From Nemertoderma westbladi (lineage: Eukaryota; Animalia; Xenacoelomorpha): a DNA stretch of 40,267 nt. The notes under the pieces were generated by a model. The model made no database searches and was not told where the DNA came from. It saw only the letters and a program-made list of their open reading frames with translations. The stretch's first letter is position 1. Each line of letters starts with the position of its first letter. This document shows, one piece after another, positions 1,391-37,180 of the stretch. Made by a program: the position numbers and the translations under genes. Location of the stretch: assembly GCA_032718475.1 (NCBI GenBank), contig JAUCBJ010001749.1, forward strand, positions 1 through 40,267, read 5' to 3'.

Positions 1391-2835
1391 CAGCAGCACC
1401 ACCAATTATAATTATTCTGCCAATTACAGTACTCGATTGTCAAAGATCCAACGACTCACGGAGTAGGCCTATAGGTGTCTCCGCTCTACGTACGTAGTGC
1501 CACAAAGTATTGGACTTCTATTACTACATAAAATACAGTATTTATTTCAAGTTTTGGGATTTTGTCCTAAGCCCCATATAAATAATAATATATAGTTAGT
1601 TATATTCATGGTTACAAATGATTGGAAACGTGACGCAGATCTGCCGTATTGTAATAATATCACAAGCCTAAGCCAAATATTCCCAGGTAATATAATATTT
1701 GTCACTAACCAGGGATATTGATATTATAATGTACAAAATATGGTCTGGAATACATCCACAAAATGTTGCCTTTCACTTATAGGTGTAGGGAGGCCTTATA
1801 CATACAGTAATATATTGTTCTATAATGACACTCAACTCAGTCTTTGTCAATGGGCAGTGCAGTAGTAGGTGTGTCTGCCACCAATATGTACTGCACGGAT
1901 CATTTGGCATGCAAAACAATACATTGATAACTTTATTAGTCTTTTCAACTAAATAAAGTATATTATTAATATGGTACGGTACCTACAGTACTGCAGGCAT
2001 ACGTTGTGTAAGCACCTTTAACACATCTTTCTACTAGTATAAGGGGGTGGGGGGGCTACAGTATTTTACATATATCCATTTTTGACGGAAAATAAAATGA
2101 TGTTTTTCATCCACATACAGTAGTTGTTGTATATTATTGAGTGTGCAGTTTGGAGTGACAAATGACCAAAAATTTATAACAGTTTATGTTGCAGATTTAT
2201 TCATTCAGAAAAAGTTCGCGACTTAGTGATGTTCCAGAATAATTTATTTACCTGACCTATAAGCTGTGATTCAATGAGAAATTAATATTTTTTTTATAGT
2301 AATAAAGCAAACATTGGTTGCTACAGTACAGTAGGCCTATATATTGGAACTATACGTAGCATCCAATTTTTAAATATCTCAAAGATAGCACGATGTAGGC
2401 CTTCAGTAGATGCAGGTAATTAAAATATACAATTTAACTTCTTGGAAATAAAAAATTTAGACTAATGTTAACGAAGATGTTTCACATAATTAAGTTTAGG
2501 ATGGATGTTTGCCGAAACCGCAGTATTACTGTATAATTAATTATCATTTAGTAGTTATGCATACATACTGCAGTACCTGATAAGCCTTTCCGTTCAGTTT
2601 TTGTTCGCTAATCTGATAATATTTGACTACGTCAAAGTTGCTCAGTTGGTTTATTTCTCGCTAACATGAGTGAGTAATTGATTATTCATAAATTCTGCAA
2701 ATATGGCATACTTTACGTTGGCTACATATACTGTATATAAATAGTTAAATTTTCCAAACCAAATATTAGTATATTTATTTAATTGTAGGCCTAGTGTATT
2801 TATACAGCGTATAAATATTTCTGTCAGATCGGAAC

Positions 2836-2867
2836 AAGGCGTCCTAAACTAAAGTTTAGGACGCCTT
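2836..2867. repeat. Perfect 15-bp hairpin
   Basis: AAGGCGTCCTAAACT-AA-AGTTTAGGACGCCTT. Confidence 0.85.
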
Positions 2868-3479
2868 TGCCTTTTGACATTAGGCAAGTACCATAGTGAC
2901 AAGTACCACACTAGCGGAGTGACATTAAACAGGAATGTGCCTGGATAAGAACGTGCCTGTAATACTGTATAAGCTATAAGGTTCAGGAATAACTGCTGCT
3001 CGACTGGTAAAATTCTGTATTAACGGATAGGCCTACACCTTTTCAAATGATTGTACACAGTAGCTAAAGAATGAAAGCGAAAATATAATTTTATGTCTCA
3101 CCCAGTAAGGGGGGAGGTGGAGGGTGAAACTATCTGCATTTCATACCATATCTCATTTTAAGATTTATATAAAAATTAGGGTTTTGGGGACGTACAGTAC
3201 CTGCATTAATACACTATTCAAGGACATATACACGTATACCCTACTGTCGTGTTTCAGTTTCAAAACGATGTTTGTTCCAGTATTATGATTATCCCGCTGA
3301 ATCTCTTAGATTATGACTTTGGGTTCGTGTTACAAGGAAGTTTTAATTATGGTTGAGGACTGACCCCATCTAACCCCAACCAAAATAATAAACCGAATAC
3401 CTCACAAAGCCATTTAAAGCACTGAAGTACGTTAGGCAGCCAAATGAGGTAGTCAGGTTACAGTGTAAATATCAGCACA

Positions 3480-4470
3480 GCAGTATCAGTAATATCAGTA
3501 TGTAATACCGGTCTGCCGGTACACTGTACAGCAGAATGGATGGAGGCAAAGATTCCTGAAGCCGCATTGTACTGCTTTAACTTACTTTCAGTTTAATGCT
3601 ACCGGTCTGCCGGTACCGTATTTTAACAAAGTCAAGGTCACATCACATTCAACCATTCCAGCATTTGTCTGTCTGTCTATTGCAATTACAGAATTCTTAC
3701 AATCTGACAATTACCTACTGTATTACCGGTACCGGCATACCGGCTGACCGGTACTAAATTCACAATTACCTGAATACCAGAATGTCAAAATTTGTGCTGC
3801 AGTGCTGATAGTCAGATAGTTCGCAGTACCATTTGCTGTCCACTCCACAGCAGCACAGACTTCTCTCAGTAGTCAGTGCTGCTGCTGCAGTGGATCTATA
3901 CTGATCTACCAGCCTACCTGCCTACTGCCAGACTGCTGTCAGGCTGTAGTCTCAGTAAGCTGGATGCTGGAGGCTGATGCCTGCATGCAGGCATGGCAGC
4001 ATGGGTGTTGTCAGGTTGTTGTTGTTGATTGCAGCCTTGCAGGTTTCAACCCATAGACTGATAAATGTACTGTAGTTTATGTCTACTAGTCTACTAGTAT
4101 GTTATGCTGTTATGTATGTCACATACTGACATAGCTGCATAGGCCTACATGTTCTGTTCCTGTTCTGTTCACCCACATACAGCTGTACAGTATGTCAGTA
4201 TGTGGGTAAACAGAACCTGAGAACAGGTAAAGATAGGCCCTAATCCATATGTAATCAGATAATACTGGCAGACCGGTACAAACATGTATCCTGCCTGCTA
4301 TCGGTAGACCGCACCGGTACCGGTCAGCCGGTATCTACGGCTGTACGGCATACCAGCATACTACAGTACTACTGTACTGGCGTACGGTATCAGATCAGAA
4401 TCTAATAGGCCTACAGTTACAGTCTGACAGTACCGGTACCATGGTTCCGGTAATACTAACTGACTAATTC
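3480..4470. other. Dense cluster of putative transposon excision footprints
   Basis: At least 19 exact 5-mer/CAG or CTG/same 5-mer motifs in about 1 kb, plus TA-CAG-TA, TA-CTG-TA, TA-CCGG-TA and TA-GGCC-TA. Confidence 0.8.
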
Positions 4471-4493
4471 TGTCATTATGCATTAATACAGTA

Positions 4494-4745
4494 CGGAGTT
4501 ATAGTTCATATCCGTACCGACCTGAAAATCCCGCCTCTGTGAGCTGTGACCTGCTCCTTTCCCTGATTTCTGGATTTGGTAAAGTGACCGTTTATTGTTT
4601 TGGTTAGAAAAGCCCACCACTGTAACCTGCTCCTTTCTGCCTTTCCGTTAATTAAGTAATGGAGATTAGTTTATTGTTTTGGTTAGAAAACACCACCACT
4701 GTAACACCATCGGTCAGGTCGGTACGCATATGAACGATAACCCAG
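4494..4745. mobile_element. MITE with about 32-bp TIRs and TA TSD
   Basis: CGGAGTTATAGTTCATATCCGTACCGACCTGA (4494-4525) is inverted at 4714-4745. TA flanks both sides. It ends 61 bp before the HOPX-like ATG. Confidence 0.85.
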
Positions 4746-4806
4746 TACGGTAATCTTGTAATAGAATACCGGTAGCCTAAACTAAATTTCAAATATTTGA
4801 ATTGTC

Positions 4807-5922
4807 ATGGCGGTAAACTATTTGCAACCTCGTGTATACGGCCCAACGAGACATACCTTACACGGGAGCATCGCCGCTCCCACCGTCTCTAAGTCCCAGA
4901 CAAATCGATCTCAAACAGTTTCGGTTCCTCTCACCGACACAACGAAATCCGTATCCGTGAGACCGAGCGTGAGAACTCTGAAACAAACTCGAGGTCGCAT
5001 CCAACCCGGTAAACCAACATACCCCCGAATCACAGAATCAACCGGATTCGACACAAACAGAAACCGACTTTCCTCCAAGTCACTTTCCTGTCCGAGATTG
5101 CGAACTCAAAGTGTCGAAAGCATCGGGAGTCATCGGAGCTTCGCCTCCACCGCGTCCAACCCGCAACGAATACAAACAACATATTTCAGCGTCTTCAATC
5201 GGAAAGACTCTCCTAGTTTCGGCAACGTGGACCAACTCCCCTCCAAGAATCCGTACCCGCGGTACCAGTTGGCCTCCGAAGACGACGACGACTTCCTAAC
5301 GCCGCCGAGTCGCTCGCCGGAGTTCCACTCGTCGCAGGGCTCGCTCAGCAACCTCGCGGGGCTGGAGAGCCCCCCCGCAGCCCGGTTGCGCGTGCCGGAC
5401 CTGCTGGATCGCAGCGCCGACAGCTGCGATCGGCTGCGGTCCCGTTCAGTTACCCCCAATAGTAAGCGGTACCCGCGGTTCTACCAGGGAACCTCGCAGC
5501 ACCGGGAGCGAACACCGGAGTCTCTGAGTTACAGACCAACCAACCTGGAGTCCACCCCGGATGCGCGTTCTAGAACACATGCGAATATAGCCAGATCAAC
5601 GCCGAGTTCTAGAACATTTACGTTAGAGACACCGCCGAGTTCTAGAATGTACGATGTCGCCGTTTCGCCGACACCAACCACCGATACAACTACGCACTCG
5701 GCTGCTGGAGGCGTATCGATGCGGTACCCGCCATGGAATTCAGAAGCGTTCTACCGGAACAGAATCCATCGTATCGTAGCGAAACCTTCCACGGCTGAGA
5801 TGGAACTAAGTTCCCATCAACTCAGTGTTCTAGAATCCGCCTATAAGCTGAATAAATGCCCAGATACTGACGAACTATCAATTCTGTCCGAGAAAGCAAA
5901 CATGTCTACTTCTCTGGTTAAA
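4807..5922 (+). CDS. HOPX: HOPX-family homeobox gene, coding exon 1 (372 aa: long S/T/P/R-rich region plus homeodomain helices 1-2)
   Basis: The ORF ends in LSSHQLSVLESAYKLNKCPDTDELSILSEKANMSTSLVK, followed by the donor GTGAGT (5923-5928). The intron is phase 0, at the usual PRD-class position in helix 3. Confidence 0.8.
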
Positions 5923-6597
5923 GTGAGTAAATTTTATATCCCCATTTATGTCCCTTAGTACATGTACTTTAGTAAGTTTCTCTCTACCACCAAGACTATT
6001 AACCTTCCTTTAATGCTGAACTAATAGGGGATTGATAATAAAAGTTTAGGTTCAATCAAACCAGCAAAAATAGTAGGCCTATACCGGAACCACAAAAAAC
6101 ACGAAATGTCAGCGTACGAGATGAGATTTAATTTCATTCATGGAGACATAATGGTTTATGTTTCAACAAAATATAAACAATTACAAACCAATATTGTATT
6201 CGATTTAGTTTTTTCCTGAAACAACCAGTTAAATTGTATTATAATTTTATTAAATAATAATTATTATTTCTACCAAACCCGCATTGATAACAATATGGGC
6301 AATTATTGTTTGATAATAACATCTTCCGGTTCAGGGTACACTAAATGCAAACTTCGGTAATCAAATATGGAGGGAAAGAGATTAATAATATCCAGTAAAC
6401 AACATTGTCCGACACGCTAACAGTGATTGGAACACAGAGGATCTGTCATAACCTTTGGAGACTATCACGTTGACAAATAATATAAGTTATTGTTTAATAT
6501 ATAATAATAATATCACAATATTTATCTCTACCGCTAATCGAGTCAGAAAGCGTTTTATTCGCACTTTAATTTCAAGTCTCTTTATTTTATTTTTTAG

Positions 6598-6684
6598 ACG
6601 TGGTACGAGAATAAATTATCCGAATGGCGTCGCAGAGAAGGTCTCCCAGCCCGGGGCTCTTCTGTGTTCGATCGCTTCCGGTGA
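6598..6684 (+). CDS. HOPX: HOPX-family homeobox gene, coding exon 2
   Basis: After the acceptor TTTTTAG (6591-6597) it reads TWYENKLSEWRRREGLPARGSSVFDRFR*. This matches the diagnostic HOPX C-terminus (human KWFKQRLAKWRRSEGLPSECRSVTD, from memory). Confidence 0.88.
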   Translation, partial: TWYENKLSEWRRREGLPARGSSVFDRFR

Positions 6685-6774
6685 GACTCTTCCGGTGTGT
6701 ATCGCTTCCGGTGAGACTCTTCCGGTGTGTATCGCTTCCGGTGAGACTCTTCCGGTGTGTATCGCTTCCGGTGA
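6671..6774. repeat. 30-bp tandem repeat x3.5 overlapping the HOPX stop codon
   Basis: ATCGCTTCCGGTGAGACTCTTCCGGTGTGT at 6671, 6701 and 6731, partial at 6761. Confidence 0.95.
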
Positions 6775-6937
6775 TCGATCGACTCCCCGCGAAGGCAATC
6801 GGTTTCCGTTGAAGGGTAGAATGGAATTCTCTGGTGTTATGTCTGTTTCCGGTGACGGTTGGGTTATTGACTCCCAACTCTATGGTGCTACACCGGAATA
6901 TCTCCATTGTATTTCCCTTGCCTTTATTTATTTGACC

Positions 6938-6943
6938 AATAAA
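6938..6943 (+). promoter_or_regulatory. Candidate polyadenylation signal of the HOPX-like gene
   Basis: First AATAAA after the stop codon, about 250 bp downstream. Confidence 0.5.
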
Positions 6944-8258
6944 CTCACGAAGTAGCCTATATAGTAGCGTTCTATTGCTTTGGCCGCCTTTAGTTGTGGG
7001 GTATTGGACGGACGGGGTCGGTTTTTATTTTATTTTTTTCAGACAACTATAATTCAAGTGCTCATTACATTCCGTAATTTTTTAGTTAAATTTTATTTAT
7101 ATTTGGAATAAGAATTGTGTTTATTTAACAACAATACGACCGCTAATCAAAGTAAAATAATATTATTGATAATATTTCTTTATAGTAATTAAAAATTTTT
7201 TAGTAAGTAATCTTTAGTTCCATTTAACAAAATAGATGGAGGGGGGGGGGGGGGGGGGGTCCCTTTAAAAACAGTTTTTATTACTAGAAATAGATAAATA
7301 ATCAAGATTATATATCATCATAATACGAATTTAGGGATGATCTGTTAGTACACTAGTGTCCCTTAACGGGATCCCGGTGAAAAATCCAATCCCGATCCCG
7401 ATCCCGACTTTTTTTTGGAACGGGATTCCGAAGTATAAATAGTGAAGTAAATATCTTAATATCCGATGAATAGTTGCTAGTTAGTTGAACCAGAAGAGAA
7501 TGTCAGTAAAACATCCAGAAATCAACTATAATTAAATTGTAATATAACTTTATCTTACTAATAGTTCAGAAGTGTAGACGGCCTCAGTACACCAACCGAG
7601 TATTTACGCTGGCAGGGAATGTATATTTTCTTATTATTCTAATAAATACGAATTAAGTCGTTAACGTATTGGTGAGTTAACGAGTTGGGGAGCGTAATTT
7701 AAAATGCATATCATTTTATAAACATTTTTTTTCATTGCCTCGTCATTTTAAATGTTCTGTTGGCTTATTTACGCCTTTAATATAAATCGCCGTTTCATTA
7801 GTAATACAAACCTTTAATTTATCGTTTTGATTATAAATAATAATTGAACTGATTTCCCTGCAAACTGAATTCATCGCAGTGCATTTAATAAAATGATATA
7901 CAATAATTAATTACCAACAAATATCATTACCAAATGCCACTTATGTAACACTTTGGTTTGTATCATTTAGTTTATATTTATTATAGTAATTTATTTGGTA
8001 GATGGTTTATAGCCAACAATAATTTAATGGGTGCTTATCTCAATTTGTATTAAATAATTACTTAAATTAGCTTTGTGTGTTACAGTTCTTTGTAGTCCGC
8101 CTAGCAGCCGGGATTATTGGGCAAAAAAGTGTTAGTGATGTGATGTTATAATTATTTAAACACGATAATGCTATAAAAGAATTCTCAATTAATTGGAAAA
8201 AATTCGCAGATTATAGTTTGATTTTCGTCGCCTCCGTAATAAATAAATAAATATGCGT

Positions 8259-13996: not shown

Positions 13997-14587
13997 CTAT
14001 GTTTGATGTTTTCTGATCTGTGAGTCCAGCAGTTTACCCCAAATGAAACTAAAAGGATGGCAAAACTTTGTAGGTTGGCCTGCTTGGTCTACCATGGGAC
14101 GCCCCTCATTGGCCCACTTAAAGAGACTCCCTTCCAGGTTATACAAACTCACTCCATCCATCACCAACATTCCAGATTTCTGTAGTTTCTCGATAATATT
14201 TGAGGATCTATAACCCACCGAACAATAAGCAACTACTAAACACTTTCGGCTTAAACTTCCATCAGTAGGAGGTACTTGACAATGAAATATTCTATCAACT
14301 TCGTTCACAATACTTTCTAGATCGGGGTTATAAGGGTCAATATTCATTGCACCTTTTATGTGACTGATAAAGAACTCATCCTTGTGTCGGGTATCGAGTA
14401 TTACGAGGGATTCGGGGTCGTTATCAGAGTTGGTTAACATCTCGTTCAGAGTTTCAGTTTGTAGTTGATTTACCGAGGGAAACTTTGTTCGAATCCCGGT
14501 TAGAGTGATCCGCATTCCAACGGGAACATTGTTCATCGGTTGGGACTCACCCGAACGACTGGCTTGCGGGTCGGGGGTCGAATCCAT
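13997..14587 (-). CDS. Single-domain rhodanese-like (sulfurtransferase) protein, 196 aa, intronless
   Basis: VILDTR..EF..SHIKGA, active-site loop YCSVGYRS, YNLEGSLFKWANEGRP and C-terminal HPFSFIWGKLL. Confidence 0.9.
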   Translation of the reverse strand: MDSTPDPQASRSGESQPMNNVPVGMRITLTGIRTKFPSVNQLQTETLNEMLTNSDNDPESLVILDTRHKDEFFISHIKGAMNIDPYNPDLESIVNEVDRIFHCQVPPTDGSLSRKCLVVAYCSVGYRSSNIIEKLQKSGMLVMDGVSLYNLEGSLFKWANEGRPMVDQAGQPTKFCHPFSFIWGKLLDSQIRKHQT

Positions 14588-16027
14588 TTATTGCCGTTTT
14601 GGATATGTTTTTTTAGTAGAAACTACCAGCAAACCGGTTGCCGGTTCGGCCTACGGTACATTACATCATAAGCTAAGCTCAGAAGCTGTAGGACTAGTAC
14701 GATGAAAGTACAGCTGTATGCAGGCAGTCTGGTATGTTTAAGTGATTTACGCTACAGCCAGACAGCACTACCTGATACAGATTGAGACCAAAGGCCTACT
14801 ACCAGACTACGTACTACAGTGGAACGGAGAATACAGATTACTGATAATTATATTGCTAGTCCTACTTCTTACTTCTGGGGTAAACGATGAATCTTACAGC
14901 AGTACAGTACGTACGATAGGCCATGTTTACATTCGACTGGTATTTGTGTCCATTATCTAAGTTTACTTATCTTTGGTAATGGTAACTGGCCTGAGGATAT
15001 TTGCGGGTTTAGTTTGTTGGTTTGGTCATGGATGATAGGTCTACTACTGATTTCGCTCATTAGTAGGCTACAGTACTACAGTACTTTATATCGCTACACC
15101 TACACCATTTCTGGAGCTGGAATATAGTGTCGTTATTCTGGAAGCATATGACCCCTCTGTGACGGGATCCTGGTTCTGGGATCCCGATACAGTTCGACTT
15201 GGTAATGTGTTTCCTACTCGCTGCGGCTGACTTCTTGGCTGAAGGACTGACTGGCCGTAGGCCTGGGAAAAAGCTAGAGTTAATCTGAGTGTCGATTTTA
15301 TTAATATAATTAATAGTCTCGATAGTACAGTTTACTGTGCTATTGAGATTGACAAATAGATTTGAGGATTAAATTACATTTTTTTTTTTATTTTTTACTA
15401 GCTAATAAAAATTACTAGCTAACACAAAATCAAAATTACTAGCTACGATATTTTTGTCCGATGGCCAAATATTTGTTCTAGAACAAAAAACGTCATAAAA
15501 AAAGAAAAAGTTGGTAAATTTTTTTATTTTAATTTTTCAATAATGATTTTTTCCACGTACTTACGGAGCCCGGGAAGGGACATGAGAAAAATATTTTTCT
15601 AACACGAGCCCTCGTGTTACTAACACGAGCCCTCGTGTTACTAACACGAGCCCTCGTATTACTAACTCGAGCCCTCGTGTTACTAACACGAGCCCTCGTG
15701 TTAGATAACACGAGCCCTCGTATTACTAACTCGAGCCCTCGTGTTACTAACACGAGCCCTCGTGTTAGCTAACACGAGCCCTCATGGTAGCTCCAACGAC
15801 CATTTACATTAATATTATTACAAATTTGGAGTTGTTTCATTGGTTGTAGTAACATAGGAGAACTAAATTGGAGGGAAATTCAAATTGTATCTCAGTGGTT
15901 CTTACGTTTCTGTTCTGTTCCTGTATGTTTCGTGTATGACAACAGTTCGAAGTTTGCCACTTAATTGAATTCGCAGTAATTCAACTTAGCAACGCGAACT
16001 ATTGCATGCCCAGCACATTTTGACATT

Positions 16028-17240
16028 ATGTGGCCCGATGAGTTAATGCCGCTTCTCAACATTTATTTTGACCTTAGCATGCCTTATAAAGATATTTCGT
16101 CTGTACTCGCCAATGATCATGGGATAAACATTGGTGAGCGACAACTAAAACGTTTATTTAGAGATTTCGGATTACAACGTCGAAATTATACACCATTGGA
16201 AGAAGTTGTAGAATTTATTAAAAATCAATTGGCTGGATCGGGAAGCATGCTGGGTTATAGAATGATGTTTGAAAAGTGTCGCCGCAACGGCTTAGTTGTG
16301 AAAAAGGAGGACGTACGAATAATTCTCAAGGAACTTGATCCACGAGGAGTCGAGCTTAGACAATCGCACCGACTTAAACGACGTTCATACTATGCCAGAG
16401 GTCCAAATTACCTCTGGCATTTGGACGGCTATGATAAACTAAAACCGTTCGGTCTATGTATAGTATAAGCGGTTGCATAGATGGGTTTTCACGGAAGATT
16501 TTGTTCTTAGAAGTTTATAAAACCAATAACAACCCAAAAATTATTGGTGGCTATTTTGTTGATTTAGTAGCTCGCCTTGGTGGGTGCCCTTTAATGGTCA
16601 GGGCAGACTACGGAACTGAAAACACCTACGTGAGAAGCTTTCAGATGTTTTTTCGCCGCAATTGCACTGATGGCTTGGTAACCCGGGCGTATACAGACGG
16701 GCGCAGTACGTCAATCAAAGAATCGAGAGTTGGTGGGGGGTTCTTCGGAAGGAGAACGCGCAGTTCTGGATAGAATTATTTAAAGAATTGCAGGCAGAAG
16801 GTATCCTCCCCGGAGACGTTGTTTCAAAGGCTGTTGTTCAGTTCTGTTTTACTTCACTAATTCAAAACGAACTAGACACATTAGCATCAGTTTGGAACCA
16901 CCATCTTATTCGTCCTTCAAGAAATCCCAACGTTCCAAGCGGTCGACCTAATATTATGTATTGTTCGCCTAGCCTCTACCATGCTACCGAACTAGCTACC
17001 GAACAGCTCGTAACCGTAGCGCCTTCTGAAATTAATACCTGCTGCTCCAACGAATTATTCCGCTCATATATTCCTTGTGATGCCGATGTATATGAACTGT
17101 GCATTCAGTTAATACGTGAGAAGAACCTCCGACGTCCTCTATCCGTAGACGACGCCGTGGAACTTTATCTCATCCTTCACAATGCAATTCGCGAACTTCT
17201 TGGAAACAACGTAAACGATATGTATACTGAGTCAGATTAA
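16028..17240 (+). pseudogene. IS3/IS481-type DDE integrase-transposase with two frameshifts
   Basis: HTH region, then WHLDGYDKLKPFG, CIDGFSRK, RADYGTEN and (after a 1-bp loss near 16712) NQRIESWW, then WNHHLIRPS. A 5-bp insertion near 16461 splits C-I-S-G-C. Confidence 0.9.
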
Positions 17241-17588
17241 CTAATTATTATAGTTGAGTATGATGTAGGTGTGTTTTTATGATATACTGTACTAAAATTA
17301 TTGTCTGTATAGCGAGAATTAATGATAAATTTTGATAATCGATATAATTTATTTATATCAATAATCAACCATCAATCACCCCCCCCCCCCCGCCCGTCGT
17401 TCCTTTATTTGTTATCGGAGATATCTATTATAAATTAAAATAATAAAATAATTACTGACCGTTTGCATTTGAATAATAAAAGTATGTTTAGTATATTTTC
17501 CTTTAATAATAATTATTAATAAAGATATGTTTAATTTAATAATAATTATTATTAATCCTAATACAATTTTTCAAACACTTTCTTAAAG

Positions 17589-17648
17589 GGAAGCAGGACA
17601 ATTCGGTCCAATTAATTTTGTGTTTTGGGACCGAATTGTCCTACATCC
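17589..17648. mobile_element. 60-bp mini-MITE with 9-bp TSD
   Basis: GGAAGCAGGACAATTCGGTCC / GGACCGAATTGTCCTACATCC. Flanks are TTCTTAAAG and TTCTCAAAG. Confidence 0.75.
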
Positions 17649-20905: not shown

Positions 20906-21070
20906 TCACTAATGTAGAGAGAGATGTGGCAACACTGAAAAGAATGGTGAAACTAATTCTGTATAATATATATTCTTTAAACTTCTTATTGTTATACAGT
21001 ATATTGATTATAAGTGTATTTTTTGTAGTATCGTTCTACAACATTCAGTATTACAGTAATTATACTATTA

Positions 21071-21971: not shown

Positions 21972-24088
21972 GGTCACCTAAAGAGGCTGAAAAAAAGAGG
22001 TTGTTTATTTTTACAATATTATGATAATTTGATATGGGGTTAGTTTTATAAATTTTCATTTGCTGCAATTTGGTCAATGGACGTAATTGAAGTCTCCTCG
22101 TTAAGCAAGACACCAAATTTTATGGTAGCTAGTGTTTTAGGTAGGTTTAGCTAGTCATTTCAACACTGGTTCCGACATCCTACTTCCTTCTATAAATATT
22201 TTGTAGTGGCTAGTTCTTATTACTATTTGTATAGAAAATGTTCCAGAACATGTTGGCTATTCATTTTTTTTTTAAATTATGTTCTAGAACAAATATTTTT
22301 TGTTCTAGAACATTTTTTAGAAAAAAATCTGGATTCTATTTAAAATTCACGGAATCGTTCTAAAACGTGTTTAAATTTGGGTGCTGGTCACCTCGCCGCA
22401 CTGCCACTTCGCCGCAAGTCATCTCGCCGCAGATAATGTGCGGCGAGGTGTCTTGCGGCGAGGTGTCTCACTATAAATGCAATTTCGCCGCAAATTATCG
22501 GACACCTCGCCGCAAGTCAATATAAATCATTTATTTCTATATTTACACGAAAGCCTACTTATGGCATTGGACATTATTATAAGAAGAAATAAAATAATAC
22601 GGTAAGGTTTGTTGTTCTATTATAATTACTGTATTATATTACATGTTATCATAGATACAGTAAGACTATTTGAGTAACGTATTAGATTATAGTAAAATAC
22701 GGTCATAAAGATTCATAGAGGACTATGAATGACATATAATGAGTATTCTGACATAGAGGTCAGATCAGAATACGGTCATTGAAGTTGTTTCCATGTCATT
22801 GATTACGGTACATTGCAGCGTTACGAGTAATTCTCCAGAACACTGTTAAGTTGGCATAATGTACTGTAACAATAACTATTTACGTACATGTACAATGTAC
22901 TAAGTACGGAAACGGAAGTAAGGCAACATAATGTAATAAGGTTAATACAGTAATACTGTATGTTTATGTTAAATCTTAATTACAAATGTAATGTTCTTAG
23001 TGGATTGATATACTTATATTTGTTGTCAGTCACTTTTTTTGTTAAGAGCAAAATTATGGTCGAATTACATTTCAAATTAATTTCCATGACATTAATAATA
23101 ATCAATAATATTGCATTAAATATTATAATTTTCTTTAATTTCTTACATTACCTATTTTATTTATTTGTGTGGAATTAATATCGCACTACCAAATCGCCAG
23201 GACAAATTTAAGAAATTCCAACAAATAATTATTTATTACATGGGAAAAAAGTAGAACTTTTTTCACTATTCTCGAGGCATTTTTAATACGTTACTCAAAT
23301 ACCGGTACTCTTACTGTATCTATAATAATACAGTAATTATAATAGAACAACAAACCTTACCGTCTGACCGTATTATTTTATTTATTTTATAATACATAAT
23401 GTCCAATGCCATACTGCCATAACTAGGCTTCCCCTGTGTAAATATAGAAATAAATGATTAATATTGCCTTGCGGCGAGGTGTCCGATAATTTGCGGCGAA
23501 ATGGCATTCACAGTGAGACACCTCGCCGCAAAGACACCTCGCCGCACATTATCTGCGGCGAGGTGACCTGCGGCGAAGTGGCAGTGCGGCGAGGTGACCA
23601 GCACCCTTTAAATTTAATACAAAAAAATTTCAAAATTTATTCACAATATTTTTTTTTCACAATTTCTTTTATTGATTTTAAACTCGTTTTAGAACGATTC
23701 CATGCGTTTTAAATAGAATCCATATTTTTTCTAAAAAATGGTCTTGAACAAAAAACATTTGTTCTAGAACATATTTTTTTTTTTTAATGAATAGCTAACA
23801 GTAACATGTTCTGGAACATTTTCTATACAAATTGTAATAAGAACTAGCCACTACAAAATATTTATAGAAGGAAGTATGATGTCGGAACCAGTGCTGGAAT
23901 TACTAGCTAAACCTACCTAAAACATTAGCTACCATAAAATTTAGTATCTTGCTTAAAGAGGAGACTTCAATTACGTCCATTAACCAAATTGCAGCATATG
24001 AAAATTTATAGAACTCTCCTCAGAAATATCATTATTCTGATATTGTAAAAATAAACTGGCCTCTTTTTTTCAGCCTCTTTAGGTGACC
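21972..24088. mobile_element. Foldback-type non-autonomous element (about 880 bp without its insert), TA or CTAG TSD
   Basis: About 400-bp inverted arms starting GGTCACCTAAAGAGGCTG (21972-22376 versus about 23677-24088). CTAG at both junctions. Confidence 0.9.
22379..23606. mobile_element. Mutator-like non-autonomous element nested in the foldback
   Basis: About 300-bp TIRs starting GGGTGCTGGTCACCTCGCCGC. The 9-bp TSD TTTAAATTT is at 22370-22378 and 23607-23615. Confidence 0.92.
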
Positions 24089-26481: not shown

Positions 26482-29350
26482 CAGTCAGGGAAAACATCCC
26501 CGTGGGGATATGTCAAATTTTGGCTTAATTTCTCAACCTATCCTAGTCAGGATAGATGACATATCCCCACCAGGATAGATGGCACATTTTCCATTTTTCC
26601 GGTTTGCGCAAAAATTGGTTGGATGGCTATGTATTTCTTCGGTATTACAATGATCAATAGGTTACAAAAATTGTAAAATTTCACGCCCTTGTCATTGGTA
26701 AGATTTATAAGAAGATTATAGGGGTTTTAAATTCACATTGATTTCTATCCTGCTGGGGATATTATCGATATATCCCCAGCAGGATATGTTTTATTTATAT
26801 CCTGGTGGGGATATTTTGGATATATCCACAGTAGGATATGTTTTAGAATAATATGTGTGTTTCCTATTCAGCATATCCTATTCAGGATATGCTAGGCTGA
26901 TGCTGGTGTGCGTGTTTCTTTCTACTGTATAGGATTTCGTGGGTGAAGACATTTGATTTATCTGTCAGTAATTGTTAGGCAAATTATTACGAAACTGCAG
27001 TCTGAATAATGGTAGGGCTACCGGTACTTATTAGACCCTATTACAGTACCTATTACGATAGTCTGTCAGTCTGTTCTGTACCATAATAATTCTGATTATT
27101 AATTATTTTGATAATGGCTTCCGGTGCGGTAAATATAAAGAACCACGGAAGGGCCGTGTTGAGACTTGCTTCTGTTCCAATTTATCTGATCTATGCTCAA
27201 CTGAAACTAGTGAAAATTTTTACACGAGGAATAAAATTTTCGAACTTCTTCTTTGGGTCCAAAATCCCAAAAGCTATGTTGGACCATTACATACCAGGGA
27301 GTCTATGGTAATGAATTCTGTAGATTCGTCCAAGTTTGGTGTCATGGTTAGAGCTGCCACTTCGCCTGCAGCATTTTACCCCACTCAACAGACAATCATA
27401 CAGGCATCTTCTGTAGACTTCCCTGAAGTGTCGCCGTCTAAAGATATATGTATTGCGATAGAAAACTTTCAATTTGTAGGCAAAACCTACCGCCTTTTCA
27501 ATAAGAAGGGTGTACCAATAAGCAAGGTTTGCTCAGTGATCAGCATACCTTAATTGTCAGGATTTATTAATTCAAAGGCACCCAATTCAGTTCATTGACC
27601 TAACTGGATTGGATGTAGGCGAGTGAGTGGAGGCCTTTATTGAAATTGAATTGATTGTAACATTGTTTATGTTACATTTAACTGCAACTATATTTATACA
27701 CATATACATATACACATATATATATATACATATTTGTACAGTAACTATATTTAAAATATATAATATTATATTCAGTCTGTACTGGTGTCAAAATATATAA
27801 TGCAACTATCCCCAAAGGCATAATAATTAAAGAACCCAAAAATAAAGTAAACTGAAACTAAAGGTGTAGGCCTACTAACGATTGAACTAAGTTGTCCCTT
27901 CTTCTTCCAACCAGCCAACGGAAGTTGTGAAGGGCACTCCCCTTCGCCTTCAGTAATGACTGGGGGTGATAAACCCGTTTCTTTCTAGCCAGCTAGCACT
28001 AGCAGTGGCTGATGATTCATCTGGCTGTAGTTCGTGTTGTCCACTTACTCCATCTATCTCTGACTTCATCTGTCCATCCACTTCATCTACTCCCAGCACC
28101 TCCTGTCCATCCACTCCATCTACCTCCGATATCGCCTCTCCACTCACTCCATCTATCTCCGACATCCCCTGTCCACCCACTCCATCTACCTCCAACAGTC
28201 CAACACCTCCTGTCCATCCACTCCATCTACCTCCGATATCGCCTCCCCACTAACTCCCTCTATCTCCGACATCCCCTGTCCAGTGTCCACCCATTTCATC
28301 TACCTCCAACATATCCTCTCCATCCACTCCATCTACCTCCGATATCGCCACTCCACCCACTCCATCTATCTCCGACATCCCCTGTCCACCCACTCCATCT
28401 ACCTCCAACACCTCCTGTCTGCCTGTCCACCCACTCCATCTACCTCCGATATCGACTCTCCCTCCACCAACTCCATCTCTCTCCGACATCCCCTGTCCAC
28501 CCACTCCATCTACTTCCTGTCCACCCACTCCATCTACATCCGATATCGCCTCTCCACCCACTCCAACATCCCCTGTCCATCTATATCCATCTATCCAATT
28601 AAGTTCAATCAGTCAATTTGTCTGAAGTTTAGTATGTTTACTGTATATACTGTATGCTGTACAGCTCTACTGTAGACAGATATACCAGTATCAGTGTACT
28701 GTACAGACTGAGTTGTTGAGGGACTACTACCAGACTACAGGACTACCCTTCTGTCAGCCAGGTACCGAAGTAGACTACCTATTATACCGGTTGTTATATT
28801 ACTTTCGCACAGAAGGCATTACAGCATTAAGGCTACCAACTAACATCTATGTGTCTGTACGGTATGTGTAAGCTTAGAGGCAATCCTTCTGGGGATATGC
28901 CACAAAACTTACATAAAACAAGCTACTGGCTGACTGGCAGACTGGTATATTATTCTAAAACATATCCCAAGACTGGAGATGTCCAAAATATCCCCACCAG
29001 GATATAAATAAACATGAATGAACTTTATCGTGAAACATACAGACATATCCCGCTGGGGATATGTCGATAATATCCCCAGCAGGATAGAAATCAATGTGAA
29101 TTTAAAACCCCTATATTCTTCTTATAAATCTTGCCAATGACAAGGGCGTGAAATTTTACAATTTTTGTAGCCTATTGATCATTGTAATACCGAAGAAATA
29201 CATAGCAATCCAACCAATTTTTGCGCAAACCGGAAAAATGGAAAATGTGTCTTCTATCCTGGTGGGGATATGTCATCTATCCTCACTAGGATAGGTTGAG
29301 AAATTAAGCCTAAATTTGACATATCCCCACGGGGATGTTTTCCCTGACTG
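26482..29350. mobile_element. TIR element with CAGTCAGGG ends and 5-bp TSD (unclassified)
   Basis: About 350-bp TIRs containing palindromic ATATCCCCNNNGGGATAT-like repeats. CCTTC at 26477-26481 and 29351-29355. Confidence 0.92.
28040..28600. repeat. C-rich degenerate tandem repeat (about 33-bp units)
   Basis: Recurrent CCACTCCATCTA(C/T)CTCC units. The minus strand reads EVDGVGGQ-type acidic repeats. Confidence 0.85.
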
Positions 29351-29677
29351 CCTTCAGCCTTACCAAGCAAGCAAGAAGTAAAGTAATCGTATAGGCCTAA
29401 CAGTAACAGTCAGACAGTGGACAGTAGGCCTATAATAGTCTGACAGTGTAACATGCTGAACAGCTGAATGCATAAAAAAATAGGAAATAAGATCTGAAGA
29501 TTATAGGTTATCACTGTTTTACATTTCAGAATTTAGCAGTTTAGTAAACTTCTGAACTTCAAACTTATGAAAATAAACTGATAAATGTCCCCTCATGATG
29601 CTGCCCCTCTGCCCCTGCCATGCGCAATGCCAGTATGCCCTACACCCTAACTCAGTAACTGCTGAACTGCCTACAGG

Positions 29678-31139
29678 CAGTTAGGTACAATGGCCAAATC
29701 TGGCAATGATTGTGATTGCCATATTTGGCAACCAAGCAAAATCTGGCAACATTTCTGATTGCCTGATTTGGCAACTATATAAAGCCGTTGTTGCCATATT
29801 TGGCAACTTAACTAACTCATTGAATATGGATTATATGGTTCTGCATCATTAAGTCCTTCTATGGTCAGATGGTAGTATGGTCAGATGGTCATTCCTTAGA
29901 TCCTGAAATGTTAATGTTAGGCCTAGAAAAAAGGCAGAGGCTGGGTAGGGCCACGTTACAGGTTATACTTAACTTATACCAGTCAGCCAGTAGTCTGGTA
30001 GTGGCATATTCTAAGTTCTAACCAATACAGCAATATATCCTAATAAATGAGGTGAGAATGAGAGTCAATAACACAAACACAGACTGACTGGTGATAGTTT
30101 TTTTGCTTTTTTGACATTTTTGCTAGCCATCTCTCGCGCTGCTTGGGGAGGTGATTGATTGTTGTTTATACCAATAATAGTTTAGTAGTTAAAGATTGTA
30201 ACTGTGTAATGCTGATACAATTGCCCAGCAATCTAAATCATCCTTCACTCTATATCAGTTCAGTATATCTATCTTTCCATTCCTACATCAGTACATACAG
30301 ACATATAATAAAAATAATTTCATCCCGTTTTTCATTAGCTGATTACAGATTAGGGCCTACTAGTAACAATTTGTTGAATCCCTTAACCTGCCTGTTAACA
30401 CGCGTTTTGGTTTTCTCAGTCTTTCTAAATTTTGACACTATTTTTCTTACGTCACGCCGTTTCTCAAACTTTAGGCTAATGCCCCCTTGCCTTCTTGCTG
30501 CCTTTTGGTGATGTCAACGTTCTGTCTGACGTTGTCAAATATTATTACGTTTATTTCCATTTTGCAGCCTTTGAAGCATGTGATTCTTTAGATTTGTTTA
30601 TGCCTATACCATAGGGCCTATACCAGTCTACCAGTACGGTATCTGTTACAGACTCATCCATCTGTCCATTAACATATTAACAATAGGCCTAACAACATAT
30701 CAAATAGGCCTACATTCTGACATTTCATCAACTAATAATGTTTATAAATCATCACAACTCGACAAGGGTAAGCAAGCAGTTAGCAATTTTGAAGTAATTT
30801 ATACAATGTCAGGGTTACTGACAGGGCTGCACAATAATAATTGTTGCCAAAAATGGCAACCATTATTTTTCTTTAATTCTAATGGTTGCCAAAAATGGCA
30901 ATAATTATTTTAGGCACATTTCGGCCTATTGCTAAGAGAAATTCAGACGATGATTTTTTTTCTTATACGGTCAATTATATTTAAATTTCGCGCTCTTTTC
31001 ACTTAACTATTTACCAAAATGCGATTTTGCTTCTGGGCTTGCGAAAATTAGAAAAACCAAAAGTTGCCAGATTTGGCAATAAACATTGCCATATGTGGCA
31101 ACTTTTGAGGTTGCCAGATTTGGCCATTGTACCTAACTG
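29678..31139. mobile_element. TIR element with CAGTTAGGT ends and 5-bp TSD (unclassified)
   Basis: Perfect 29-bp TIR CAGTTAGGTACAATGGCCAAATCTGGCAA with subterminal TTGCC..TGGCAA palindromes. ACAGG at 29673-29677 and 31140-31144. Confidence 0.92.
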
Positions 31140-32264
31140 ACAGGCCTACAGACTGACAGAACAGCTAACATCCAACACAGTCTGACAGTACTGCAGTAAC
31201 AGATGACAGACAGACAGAGTGAGGAGTAACGTAACGGCTAACACTGTTCAGAGTTCAGCTGTTACCTAGTTACTGTAGGGTAGGTGTCAGGTGTAGGCGT
31301 GTAGCAGGTAGGCCTGGCCTACAGCCCAGCTGTGCGTATCTCTGTATCTGTCATTTGTGCACAGCCTACCTGCCTCAGTCAGTCAGTGCCTACGTCTAGG
31401 CCTGGCTAGTGGCTACAGCGTACTGCTGTACGGATACATGACCGTACGTAATCAGGACCGAATATAACATAGTTATTACGTATCGAACGTAACCGCAATT
31501 ATGTTACATTGGATCCTATAACTATGAACTATGTTACATTCGATCTACAAATTACTAAGCTCGAATGTAACATCTGAACATTGCCATTTACAGATTTAAA
31601 GGCTGAAAGGAGCAGGTTACAGAGGCATGTAGCGTGTAGGGCAGTAGGGAACATACCCTTAAATAAGCTCCAAAACTGGGTTCTTATTTAAGGAAAATGG
31701 CTCTTATTTAGCCTTTTTTGGATATTTTTTCGACATAATATGCAAGAACTTGTTTCAGGTAAAAATACGGCATAATTTTATTTCACAATATAAAAGTTGG
31801 GTCTTTCTTGAACATAATGCAAAAAACCAGAAAACATTTCACCGTCCGGTTTTTTTTCTACAAGCGTTTTAAAATTGCATCAAAAATACGACCAGTTCCT
31901 AAATAAGAGGGATTTTTTAAATTTACCTTATTTAAGACATCGAAATTGTACACATAAATACTAAAAGTCCTTAAATAAGAACTTTTTGACATGGGTTTCA
32001 TATTTAGGTATACAATTTCATTCCAAAATCTGCATACTCCTTAAATAAATTAAATATTTCTCATTTCTCAAATATTAAATTAAATAAATTAAATTAAATA
32101 TCCTTATATAATGTCTCTTATAACCTCGTCTCCCAGCCCCGTCCTCCTTCTGCCCTTAACTGCTTATGACAGTTATGTATGACCTAACTGCCTAACCTTT
32201 ACAGGACATTGCAAGATGCCGAGATAAGGGAGCTTCTGAGCTTAATTTGATAGGTGCAAAAATG

Positions 32265-33495
32265 CACAACGAGCAACAATGACCAACAACGAGCAACAAA
32301 TGAACAATGAGTAACAAAACAACGAGCAACAATGAGCAACAACAAGTAACATTGAGCAACAATGAGCAATACTAAAGTACAACAATGAGCAATAATGAGG
32401 AACAACGACTGAACGAGCAACAATGAGCAACAACGAGTAACAATGAGCAACTACAGAACTACGAATACTGCGAGTAACATTGAGCAACAATGAGAAACAA
32501 TGAGCAACAACGAGCAAAAATGAGCAATACTGCAATAATAAAGTACAACAACGAGCAACAATGAGCAACAGCGAGAAACAACGAACAACAATGAGCAATA
32601 ATGAGGAACAACGACTGAACGAGCAACAACGAGCAACAATGAGCAACAACGAGTAACATTGAGAGACAACGAGCAACAATGAGCAATAATAAAGTACAAC
32701 AACGAGCAACAATGAGCAACAACGAGAAACAACGAGCAACAATGAGGAACAACGACTGAACGAGCAATAATAAAGTACAACAATGAGCAACAACGAGTAA
32801 CAATGAGTAATAATGAGCAACAATGAGCAATAATAAAAGTACAACAACGAGCAACAACGAGAAACAACGAGCAACAATGAGGAACAACGACTGAACGAGC
32901 AATAATAAAGTACAACAACGAGCAACAACGAGAAACAACGACCAATAATTAGGACATGAGGAACAACGAGTAACAATGAGCAACAATGACAATGAGTAAC
33001 AACGAGTAACATTGAGCAATAATAAAGTATAACAACGAGTAACATTGAGCAACAACGAGCAACAATGAGAAACACTGAGCAACAATGAACAATAATAAAG
33101 AACAACAACGAGCAACAATGAGCAACAACGAGAAACAACGAGCAATAATGAGCAACAACGACTGAACGAGCAACAACGAGTTATATAGAGCAACAATGAG
33201 CAATAATAAAGTACAACAACGACTGAACGAGCAGCACCGAGTAATATTGAGCAATAATAAAGTACAACAACGAGAAAAAATGAGCAACAATGAGGAACAA
33301 CGATTGAACGAGCAATAATAAAGTACAACAACGAGCAACAATGAGCAACAACGAGCAATAATAGAGTACAACGAGCAACAACGAGCAATAATAAAGTACA
33401 ACTAACGAGCAACAATGAGCACCAACAAGCAACAATGAGCAACAATGAGAAATAATAAAGCACAACGAGCAGCAATGGGCAACAACGAGCAACAA
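32265..33495. repeat. Strand-asymmetric low-complexity satellite, AACAA(C/T)GAGC-type units
   Basis: Degenerate 10-bp units with recurrent AATAATAAAGTAC and GACTGAACGAGC variants. Confidence 0.95.
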
Positions 33496-33516
33496 ACTGC
33501 GTCGAACCGGATTGAA

Positions 33517-33797
33517 TGTGGGGGAGAGTCACGTTCAAGTGAGCGAAACCTTAGCATATGGGTGCTATTAATATTAACGAATTGTCTGTCGTCGTTGTAA
33601 ATTTTTTATCGCTAATAACTCGGTCATTCTTTGATGAAATTAAACGAAACTTGGTATGTATGTAGTCTGTCAAAAGATTATAAATATTAAAATTAAGGAG
33701 ATGAGTATTGTGTTGAACGACCTCTGACTAACGAAAGACAACATGTTAATGGGGTGGGGCCCCTATCAGCTAGGGCTAGCTAAGGCTTTGCTCACTT
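33517..33797 (+). mobile_element. HINE/Helentron-associated element
   Basis: Inverted AAGTGAGCGAAACCTTAGC (33537-33555) / GCTAAGGCTTTGCTCACTT (33779-33797). GTC microsatellite and AAACTTGGTA core. Confidence 0.6.
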
Positions 33798-33913
33798 CAT
33801 GCTGCGTAAAGGTCCCACGAACGTGTCCCACTGCGGCCTGAGCCAGTTGAGCCAAAAACGTCACCCAGTCATCATCTTTAACCTTCTAACGTCTATCAGC
33901 TGCCCGACGGAAC

Positions 33914-34821
33914 CCAGGTTGGAATTCATGCTGCAAAACTCGGACGCGTACCTGCGCGAATGACCGCAAACCAGATGCGCGTTGCGCGTTTGGGTGAGAC
34001 AGGTGCGCGTTCGGGTGTGAGACAGGTGCGCGTTGCGCCTCAGCGCGCAGCTCTGCCTCTGATGCGCACCACAAATTAATTGAAATCACGAAAATACACA
34101 AAAAAATTTCGCTCGCTGCGCTCGCATTAGTTTCTCATTTACAATTCTTCAAACAGTCAAATCACTTCACCATAATACTGTAATACCGGCAACCGGCAGA
34201 CCGGAGCTGAATTTGTCTATTTATTTTAACTACAGTACTCTATTGTTGTATTGTTATTAGGTCTATGCTATGCCGATGTTACGTTAGTAAACAGGTAAAG
34301 TCAGAAAGTAACAATGTATTATAAGTATGACTTAATTATAAGCCAACTGTATGTTTAAGCCTAATTGTTAGGTAGGCCTATACAAAGTATTATTGGCAGA
34401 CTGGTACCTATTTCAATATTCGTTTTTTTGAAATTACCGGTACATGTTTTGTTTGTGATCTAAAATAATATTTTCTGTTATAAAAGCAGTGAGCCCGATG
34501 GGCCACCATAGTAGTGGATTAAAAAAATATTTTTTAATATTAACAATTTTGATGTTGCAAAAATTACATTTATTATGTAAGCCTAGATTCAACGTAGACA
34601 GACAGACGTAACGATAAGCTTAAAACGCTCAAACTTGTAAAATAGGAATGTAAAATTGTTCTTATGAACTGTGCGATTTTTTGAGATATGCATGACATGA
34701 GCTGCGCGATTTTGTTTGGATTATGACATATGATGAGGTGCGCGACGAGCCAATTTCAGGTGCGCGGTGATTTCAAAACAACAAAGCGTACCTGCGCGCT
34801 CATGCATGAATTCCAACCTGG
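33914..34821. mobile_element. hAT-like non-autonomous element with 8-bp TSD
   Basis: 18-bp TIR CCAGGTTGGAATTCATGC. GACGGAAC at 33906-33913 and 34822-34829. GC-rich TGCGCG subterminal motifs. Confidence 0.85.
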
Positions 34822-36447
34822 GACGGAACCATATTTGTGCCTGCCTATTGACATGACATTGACATTGGTTTTTTTTCACACCTTTCAAGTACAACATTGT
34901 GGACAATCCATCTAAGTGGGGCGTAATGCGGAGCAGAAGAGGAAATGCAGGACACAAGTTAGTTTTTCGAAACTGTGCGGCGATGTCCAGTTACTTGAGT
35001 CATGTCTCATCGAAATACGTGACAATGTATGTGCGCTCAGATGGGCGATGGGCTATTCTTTTGAATATCAAAGGGCTATTCTATGCTACCGTGTGAGGTA
35101 AGAATGCCAGTGCTAGCAACTTCATTATGATACGATATTCTACAGAGGATTTATAGAGTGCAGTGCAACCATTGTCCTTATCCTTAACCCAACAATTAGC
35201 AATATTCAGACTGACATAAATCAAAGAATTATGAAAGAAGTGTAACATATACTGTAAGGAATAAGGAATATTTATTTTATTTAAGGAATGTGCAGATTTT
35301 GGAATACAATTGTATTCCTAAATAAGAAACCCAGGTCAAAAAGTTCTTATTTAAGGACTTTTAGTATTTATGTGTACAATTTCGATATCTTAAATAAGGT
35401 TAATTTAAAAAATTCATCTTATTTAGGAACTGGTCGTATTTTTGATGCAATTGTAAAACGCTTGTAGAAAAAAAACAGGACGGTGAAAGGTTTTCTGGTT
35501 TTTTGCATTATGTTCAAGAAAGACCCAACTTTTATATTGTGAAATAAAATTATGCGGTATTTTTACCTGAAACAAGTTCTTGCATATTATTATGTCGAAA
35601 AAATATCCAAAAAAGGCCCAAAAACCCCTAAATAAGAGCCATTTTCCTTAAATAAGAACCCACTTTTGGAGCTTATTTAAGGGTATGTTCCCTACTGTAG
35701 GGGGAACCAAAACAATAAACGAAAGTTTACACATACAGACATATGTTACAAGATTATGCAGGTTACTTTTATTTAAAGGCTGAAAGGAGCAGGTTACAGA
35801 GGCATGCAGCATGTTGGGGGAACCAAAACAATATACTGATATACGAAAGTTAACACATGTTACAAGATGCAAGATTATGCTGTTATGCAGGTTTCTTAAT
35901 TGGGTCTTGGGTCTTTGTTTTGTACTCACCAACACCAAACTGTTCCTTCCTGTAATTATACAGTTATACGAAGCATTTCATTGGTTAACTCCTGAAATCA
36001 AAACACAACTGAAATAAATGCATGTTACATTCGAGCTTAGTAATTTGTAGATCGAATGTAACATAGTTATAGGATCCAATGTAACATAATTGAGGTTACG
36101 TTCGATTCGTAAAAACTATGTTACATTCGATCCTGATTACGTTCGGTCTGTCACCCCTGCTGTACTGCCCTGCAGCCCTCAGTCCCTTCCTGCTGCCTGC
36201 TGTCCTGTCCTGCCTTCTGTCCTGTACTGTGCGTTTCGGACTTTCAAGTTTCAGACAGTCAGAGTTTGTACGGGATGACGGTGGACGGGTCTGCGGGTAG
36301 AAGGGATAAGTTTATCAGTTTATTCTCGAAGCTAATTCAGTAAATTTGCTTTCATTTTTATTTATATGCTAGGCCAGTCTGCCAATCAGCCAATACAGCA
36401 ATAGGCCTACCCCAGCGCCTATGACAGTAGAGTGGAGAGTGCTGGAG

Positions 36448-36927
36448 GGGTCCTACGAATTACCCCAAAATACCCCAAAACACCCCAAAATACCCCAAAA
36501 TACCCCAAAATAGTCAAATATTACCCCAAAATACCCCAAAAAGGCTAAAAAATTACCCCAAAATACCCCAAAATAAGCTAACCATGTTTTTTAACAGCGA
36601 GGGAAAGGAGCAGGTTACAGTGGCAAGTTTTTTTAACCAAAACAATAAACGAGAGTGAAGAAAAAATTTTTAATTATTTTGGGGTAATTCGTCATTATTT
36701 TGGGGTAATTCGTCATTTTGCCATATTTTGGGGTAAATTAAATTTCGAAAACAAAGGGTGAAAAAAAAGTATTTTGGGGTAATTCTAAACTATTTTGGGG
36801 TATTTTGGGGTAATTCTAAACTATTTTGGGGTATTTTGGGGTAGTTTTATACTATTTTGGGGTCTTTTGGGGTGTTTTGGGGTATTTTGGGGTGTTTTGG
36901 GGTATTTTGGGGTAATTCGTAGGACCG
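36448..36927. mobile_element. MITE with TACCCCAAAA arrays and 8(-9)-bp TSD
   Basis: GGTCCTACGAATTACCCCAAAATACCCC inverted at both ends. TGCTGGAG at 36440-36447 and 36928-36935. Confidence 0.9.
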
Positions 36928-37180
36928 TGCTGGAGTGGCAATTAGGCCTATACCTCTCTGCCTATACCGGTACCTGTAAATGTAATTCGTAATTGACAAT
37001 TCCTTATTCGGTTAGTATTTTCTTGGCATTTATCAGTTTATATCATCATTATATAACTAGAACCAGATCAGCGGAGCTGGAGAGTTACCGGTAATTCAGT
37101 ACGGTAATTGTTATTAAATTAAACGAACTTGCAGTTGTCTACAGAATGTAAAAGGCTGAAAGGTAAATTCGTTGCACAAA

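Follow-up and report, generated by a model that had tools for sequence, protein, structure and literature searches.

The window analysed here, a 40,267-nucleotide stretch of transposon-rich animal DNA from Nemertoderma westbladi, contains 119 exact copies of a motif in which two identical 5-mers flank CAG or CTG (N5-CWG-N5; 60 CAG and 59 CTG), against 0.75-2.35 expected (20 shuffles each; largest 5). These motifs are very probably transposon excision footprints left by a three-base staggered cut, resembling those of Sleeping Beauty in form. The excess itself is real and statistically overwhelming. The segment 3500-4470 holds 25 exact motifs (13 CTG and 12 CAG) spanning 3508..4467, against 0.06, 0.20 and 0.15 in shuffles keeping 2-, 3- and 4-mers, respectively (300 each; largest 2). 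The original prediction, made from the sequence alone, had listed 19 motif starts in this segment and claimed an excess far over chance. All 19 starts were exact, the excess was borne out, and six further motifs were found at 3795, 3846, 3924, 3935, 3983 and 4359. The densest kilobase contains 25 motifs, whereas drawing CWG sites at random 500 times gave at most 19. Together, the 25 scars make up 200 of the 971 bases of the segment (21%), or 272 when TA-type words are counted; about one fifth is thus demonstrably scar, and the description of a kilobase built from scars was overstated. The layered scars that had been described are present as 5 overlapping adjacent pairs, but random placement gives 6.6; overlaps are no commoner than chance, and preferential nesting is not supported. 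Stepwise removal of scars exposed just 2 hidden ones in the window (121 versus 119).

With a CWG spacer, repeats of k = 5 numbered 119 and those of k = 6 only 1 in the window, revealing a sharp spike at k = 5. Shorter repeats numbered 14 at k = 4 (4-6 expected), 30 at k = 3 (16-22) and 170 at k = 2 (58-81), the last because of TA-CWG-TA words. The claim of k = 5 only was therefore correct for the spike but not for k = 2, which is over-represented as well. Identical 5-mers flank 10% of the CTG and 10% of the CAG triplets in the window, followed by CCC (5%) and GGG (4%), both from homopolymer tracts, and by at most 2% for the rest, in agreement with the predicted spacer specificity. When exact 5-mer duplications are sorted by gap (0-7 bases), only the gap-3 class has one dominant spacer. 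In addition, one-mismatch motifs numbered 62 versus 19 expected, pointing to older, decayed scars, so that scars of different ages coexist.

Elements with matching ends lie in the same window. We compared the ends of inverted-repeat pairs over 15 bases and read their flanking duplications, which revealed at least three pairs with perfect 15/15 ends starting with CAG and an exact 5-bp target-site duplication (TSD). Element E2 (26482..29350) has long TIRs starting CAGTCAGG and the TSD CCTTC, element E3 (29678..31139) has TIRs starting CAGTTAGG and the TSD ACAGG, and element E1 (31642..35697) has TIRs of about 430 bp starting CAGTAGGG and the TSD TAGGG. All three are non-autonomous and terminate in CAGT...ACTG. 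Their termini are identical over the first four bases and divergent after about eight, and therefore belong to separate families sharing one end type. The three bases of the scar spacer are those with which E1-E3 begin or end, and the scar duplication has the length of their TSD; a TSD, CAG or CTG and the TSD again is the expected remnant if three terminal bases stay on each flank. Two other candidates were set aside: an AT-rich inverted-repeat pair at 21054-22631 (13/15) resembles a chance match, and among viral contigs the 20-mer end of E2 had 1 match of 28 bases, with no partner repeat, which was taken as chance. Isolated copies of the E3 end, 12-14 bases long and with no matching target duplication, were observed at 27592-27606 and 24217-24231.

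A 163-codon open frame inside E2 (27062..27553, plus strand) matches an unnamed DDE-type family over about 120 codons; E1 and E3 gave no coding match. The family match runs up to the third core strand, and Glu replaces the family's first catalytic Asp. The frame has no Pfam match, and comparison with 1.84 billion proteins yielded 7 matches, among them P0121 at E 3e-15. A family profile built without the frame recovered it at E 8e-19, and a profile from the 12 long members alone at 2e-4. Iterated searches revealed a family of 900-1240-residue proteins, with named members from bivalves, in which D176 (DNxQ), D459 (DG), H519 (GxGHxEMN) and E706 (LEExN) are conserved. The family passes no transposase Pfam cut-off, and neither a THAP nor a P-type Pfam domain was among the families listed for the members. 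In most long members D459 is followed by a compact CxxC...H(4)H finger, which P0129, more closely related to the window fragment, does not have. The RAG1 N-terminal region PF12560, a Chapa-like zinc domain, was found in 9 of 31 members (best E 5e-12) and in the full-length member L004, and was not seen in the E2 fragment, P0121 or P0129. DUF6589, which we take to be the AcademH core, gave weak matches in 8 of the 31 members (best E 1.9e-6, 27.3 bits versus a cut-off of 27), and the motif order DN, DG, GxxH, D..E..N presumably resembles that of Academ transposases.

L004 (2401-5652) is an intact 1083-residue gene on a contig filed under a bacterial MAG (GC 37%), which is probably host animal DNA binned by error. 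It has no convincing TIR pair, and 1 motif was found in 12.4 kb. Neither an XPG-type nuclease nor a RecQ-type helicase was seen beside the gene in the 4 frames scanned of 13 listed. In viral contigs the family profile matched 0 loci, and in metagenome contigs 2 short fragments, without ends or scars. E2 also shows a hAT-like 'SLDG' motif on its minus strand, but this was discounted, since it is the antisense shadow of the frame on the plus strand. No inverted-repeat pair framing the transposase fragment was found inside E2, and the 14-base copy of the E3 end at 27592-27606 stands 50 bases behind the fragment, so the fragment may not be E2's own. The E2 frame, short and without the first Asp, may be captured cargo. 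The DDE family of which E2 carries a fragment is the likeliest maker of the scars, an assignment to which we give about an even chance.

The family was modelled on P0134 (pLDDT 87.5); an earlier family model (11 rows, pLDDT 41.8) and its fold search were set aside. The best fold match was the Drosophila P element transposase (PDB 6pe2, 6p5a; Z 9.1, 8.8). Against 48,161 chains it scored 8.8, ahead of integrase cores (6.2) and Hermes (5.4). In a second comparison it scored 9.1 with an rmsd of 6.5 over 361 aligned positions, barely above the 7-8 reached by unrelated models, and was followed by Hermes (5.5), ISCth4 (5.2), RAG1 (4.3) and Transib (3.5). Foldseek with the P0134 model against PDB and BFVD gave nothing at E<=0.001, and sequence searches of PDB gave nothing relevant. 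The family is predicted to fold nearest to P-element transposase, with a modest score. In the excerpt of PMC7776569, P transposase cuts one strand inside its inverted repeat, by 17 bases, and favours insertion near promoters; a cut of one strand inside the inverted repeat would likewise explain the scars here. Unlike P, which has an 8-bp TSD, a 17-nt stagger and an N-terminal THAP domain (PMC7776569, excerpt), the elements here have a 5-bp TSD and a putative 3-nt stagger, and the full-length relatives have PF12560 at the N terminus. Since P transposase cuts inside its repeat and Hermes and RAG excise via hairpins on flanking DNA (PMC1131882, excerpt), a P-like enzyme with a short stagger fits.

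Features of other groups were also found. In the available parts of PMC4411706 and bioRxiv 10.64898/2026.01.24.700457, Chapaev and RAG1-like transposases are the only ones reported to have the Chapa domain, and PF12560 gives 9 of the 31 members of the present family this type of N-terminal zinc domain. Known groups with 5-bp TSDs are Transib (with CAC ends), hAT5 and some Ginger2, according to excerpts of PMC1131882, PMC12730594 and PMC10045372. The elements share 5-bp TSDs with Transib and CA..TG termini with the Transib/CMCT group; however, their termini are CAGT and not the CAC of Transib (PMC1131882, excerpt), and RAG1 and Transib rank far below P in fold. AcademX has TSDs of 3-4 bp and AcademH of 9-10 bp (PMC10045372, excerpt), unlike the 5 bp of E2, a difference that holds only if the fragment is E2's own; no accessory helicase or nuclease of the Academ type was seen among the frames of L004 scanned. 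Titles and abstract beginnings in the literature revealed no paper on the DDE family or on a 5-bp-TSD CAG/CTG footprint; Repbase lies outside this search, so the lineage may have a Repbase name. In the supplement text of PMC4455052, as far as available, 6 family motifs and 4 family names had no match, and the available parts of PMC10799480, PMC5225508 and PMC4455052 hold nothing specific on the footprint or the family.

As the main competing view, the same scars might instead come from hAT5, a hAT group with 5-bp TSDs reportedly due to Kapitonov and Jurka in 2007, the E2 fragment being captured cargo and the three bases being copied back by aborted sister-chromatid gap repair or left by an unusual cut; we consider this rather unlikely. 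hAT5 is defined by 5-bp TSDs (PMC12730594, excerpt) and hAT termini have G at the third base (PMC1131882, excerpt), both of which are seen in E1-E3, and the lack of a coding match in E1 and E3 would be compatible with hAT5. However, Hermes hairpins the flanking DNA (PMC1131882, excerpt), as hAT enzymes do, so that element ends would not stay at the donor site. Flank-palindromic footprints of the Hermes style were not found, the spacer being element-end sequence independent of the flank, and the dominance of a single spacer in the gap-3 class alone is too uniform for aborted synthesis. Moreover, the E2 coding fragment is not hAT, and no hAT Pfam family was present among the 25 of 54 families listed for the 31 members, nor did 15 frames in or near the elements contain one.

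Another possible source, which we regard as unlikely, is a Tc1/mariner- or pogo-type lineage whose target cut changed from TA to a 5-bp stagger. Elements of the Tc1/mariner-pogo group often start with CAGT. In the window, TACAGTA was found 30 times versus 6.9 expected and TACTGTA 38 times versus 6.3, tandem arrays being left out, so such TA-type enzymes are or were active. The three-base CAG/CTG footprint is canonical for Sleeping Beauty, and Tc1/mariner footprints consist of 2-4 element-derived nucleotides (PMC6943129, excerpt); here they consist of 3 nt, CAG in 60 cases and CTG in 59, and as in TA-C(A/T)G-TA the three terminal element bases stand between two TSD copies. In contrast, IS630/Tc1/mariner elements have TA TSDs in general (PMC10045372, excerpt), whereas the TSDs here are CCTTC, ACAGG and TAGGG, and no Tc1/mariner transposase was found in E1-E3 or linked to the donors. 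The duplication here comprises five variable bases with a weak palindromic bias of their own and no TA core, and the net gain is 8. The parallel to Sleeping Beauty that had been drawn is thus valid for the form of the footprint but not for the family, as the donor's transposase-like sequence is not Tc1/mariner.

Replication slippage in low-complexity DNA, or templated insertion by microhomology-mediated end joining, would make the motifs without any transposon, but is highly improbable. CAG and CTG are frequent in the region, 5 of 109 motifs are complete tandem 8-mers, and paralog gaps of other sizes occur; even so, shuffles keeping 4-mers give 0.15 motifs versus 25. Slippage duplicates whole units, whereas here three new bases appear that are always CAG or CTG. 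The base preceding the 5-mer matches the spacer at a frequency of 0.24 and the base following its copy at 0.17, which is chance level; the duplication therefore covers five bases exactly, and the remaining three are new. This result, together with the 5 of 109 tandem repeats, shows that slippage fails; the outcome that the original prediction had set against itself did not hold, 104 of the 109 motifs not being tandem 8-mers. Outside tandem arrays, 108 of 188 period-8 runs contain a scar motif, and the other 80 fall within the 65-106 seen at periods 5-7 and 9-12; there is no excess at other periods. Slippage would also leave unexplained that spacer and duplication length match the intact elements and that the sites have a palindromic bias.

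Excision footprints should have unoccupied counterparts, and homologous sites without the insert do exist. Alignment of 14 paralog pairs revealed 3 clean 8-base gaps in well-aligned sequence, and all 3 consist of CWG plus the adjacent 5-mer. Two of them, at 23359 and 23409, lie in the right arm of a long inverted repeat (scars at 23359..23421), the left arm of which (22453-22684) is without them. The third, at 35831, lies in a tandem unit, where scars at 35731, 35831 and 35875 (35731..35887) tell apart two tandem copies of one repeat unit. One 10-base and one 15-base gap each include a scar, and the remaining gaps are of 1-7, 11, 12 and 30 bases; one 8/8 gap pair was excluded as a poly-A/poly-T artefact. 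Each of the four public runs (X1-X4, of which X2 and X3 are one sample) has a short repeat, at 4544-4705 in the window, in hundreds of very deeply covered contigs; more copies lie in the window at 13604, 35765 and 36591. It contains two scars (4565 and 4632; 4565..4644), and other copies are shorter by exactly 8 bases at both. The site at 4632 is empty, with exactly 8 bases missing, in 1, 6, 4 and 3 contigs of runs X1-X4, respectively, and the site at 4565 in 0, 3, 4 and 1. The scar at 4632 has CTG, and CAG is found at the homologous 31598 and 35775 in the same orientation. No site was found in all three states, empty, full and scarred, and no full element at a scar site in another allele was found among the 24 loose contig ends listed, in which the high-copy repeat was dominant.

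Removal of 8 bases from each of 108 scars reconstructs the empty sites. Within the 5-mer, 81 of them have C or A at position 2 and 73 have G or T at position 4. Over 17 bases, the matrix of the empty sites has a reverse-complement symmetry of r 0.77, compared with 0.01 +/- 0.21 in controls, 0 of 1000 controls being as high, and the TSDs of all of E1-E3 fit this palindromic preference. The CAG-ended elements with exact 5-bp duplications, the 8-base paralog gaps and the palindromic empty sites agree with the excision-footprint reading originally predicted.

Scars are densest 5' of genes and among elements. The cluster of 25 (3508..4467) lies directly 5' of a homeobox gene, whose first-exon open frame (4801..5922, plus strand; Homeodomain E 4.5e-4, below the cut-off on this exon alone) is followed by a GT..AG intron at 5923-6597. 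Four scars (14675..14907) lie 5' of a rhodanese-domain gene (13997-14566, minus strand), which matches invertebrates at 40-43%, the best being an acoel by a small margin. Seven scars (36251..37163) lie 5' of a 1028-codon open frame that runs from 37181 to the window end (40267). The 1028-codon frame has 0 scars within it and no Pfam match at E 0.1; a CCCH-like motif near its start was seen by eye, and 33-bp repeats lie at its end. The densities 5' of the three genes are 20.4, 4.9 and 6.9 per kb, respectively, and the clustering near genes refers to these three genes in one window. A second dense field, 28600..31640, has 36 motifs in and between elements (11.8 per kb), and three gene-distal stretches have 0-0.2 per kb. 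Reading frames contain 1 scar in about 6.5 kb, and the homeobox exon frame has 1 motif in 1.1 kb; scars are missing from reading frames, presumably because 8 bases cause a frameshift. That the motif is a selected cis-regulatory or structural word and not a mutational by-product is barely credible: its peak density 5' of genes versus gene-distal DNA would suit such a word, but the 5-mers have no common sequence (most frequent class 6 of 108), transposon interiors and arms are also filled with scars, and between samples the region differs mainly by gaps.

Differences between samples were obtained by aligning contigs of the four runs to 2300-8100. Run X4 behaves like RNA, as it skips a GT..AG intron. 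Of the 24 contig pieces listed for runs X1-X3, 5 fall entirely within 3600-4530, 16 are entirely outside 3500-4700, and 3 cross a boundary. The 5 inside pieces have 93 gap letters and 2.3 substitutions per kb, the gaps being known by length only, compared with 8.0 and 11.8 per kb in the 16 outside pieces; contig pieces may also break at clustered substitutions, and the contrast supports the footprint reading indirectly. One-direction gap totals of the inside pieces are 8, 24, 32, 33, 15 and 11, with exact multiples of 8 in 3 of 6. One X1 contig uses bases 4122..4126 (plus strand) twice, with three unaligned letters between the copies; this is the geometry of a putative new 8-base scar atop the scar at 4121.

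The motif, the donor-type elements, the empty paralogs and the site symmetry are all observed in the window, and the following catalytic route could connect them. A transposase dimer would insert the element at a loosely palindromic site, producing the 5-bp duplication seen for E1-E3. Excision would combine a cut at the element end on one strand with a cut of the non-transferred strand three bases further in, so that both flanks keep a 3' CAG overhang. End joining might then pair the overhangs across a central A:A mismatch, which would resolve to CAG or CTG with equal odds, so that each visit would add a net 8 bases. Visits would concentrate in non-coding DNA 5' of genes and within other elements. 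For the TA-C(A/T)G-TA footprint of Sleeping Beauty, the published route is likewise a cut inside the element followed by end joining (PMC6943129, excerpt).

Excision is normally invisible in a genome, and natural excisions in rice are mostly ragged, with 8 of 94 perfect (PMC4423477, excerpt). Here every visit seems to leave 13 bases that identify themselves, over a background near 1 in 500, and a single assembly therefore suffices to read where a transposon prefers to insert, how often it visits, how old its visits are and where its hot spots lie. Cut-and-paste elements would have written at least one fifth of a promoter-proximal kilobase. The excision reading would extend element-derived footprints beyond Tc1/mariner and would predict the cleavage chemistry of a transposase family without a Pfam model. 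More speculatively, an unnamed DDE lineage with a P-element-like core, in many members a RAG1-type N-terminal zinc domain, a 5-bp TSD and a 3-nt stagger might be the leading mutagen of promoter DNA here. Its visits to open germline chromatin would be frequent enough for haplotypes to differ by more 8-base scars than point changes, and the density of scars could then serve as a fossil map of germline promoters and past transposition, a proposal that we hold only tentatively.

Other elements were also observed in the window. An IS3EU-like element (15550-19010) has the left end TACGG, matching the IS3EU description in the part of the source available, frameshifted integrase-core frames at 15980-17240 (rva_4, Clr5) and long inverted arms with 21-bp repeat arrays; within it lies a perfect 140-bp inverted repeat with a 5-base loop (17849-18133). 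At 21972-24088 there is a GG..CC-ended element with a TA duplication. Further TIR elements differ in their signatures and are found at 22379-23606 (GGG ends and a 9-bp duplication), 33914-34821 (8-bp duplication) and 19891-21923 (GGGG ends at an AT site). Further TA-type footprint-like words, counted window-wide with tandem arrays left out as for TACAGTA and TACTGTA, are in excess, with 20 copies of TAGGCCTA versus 0.8 expected and 9 of TACCGGTA versus 0.6. Comparison of the TIR arms at 23783-23797 and 22250-22258 revealed a 6-base insertion that amounts to a second copy of a 5-mer plus a single C between the two copies; it may be a scar that microhomology joining has shortened.
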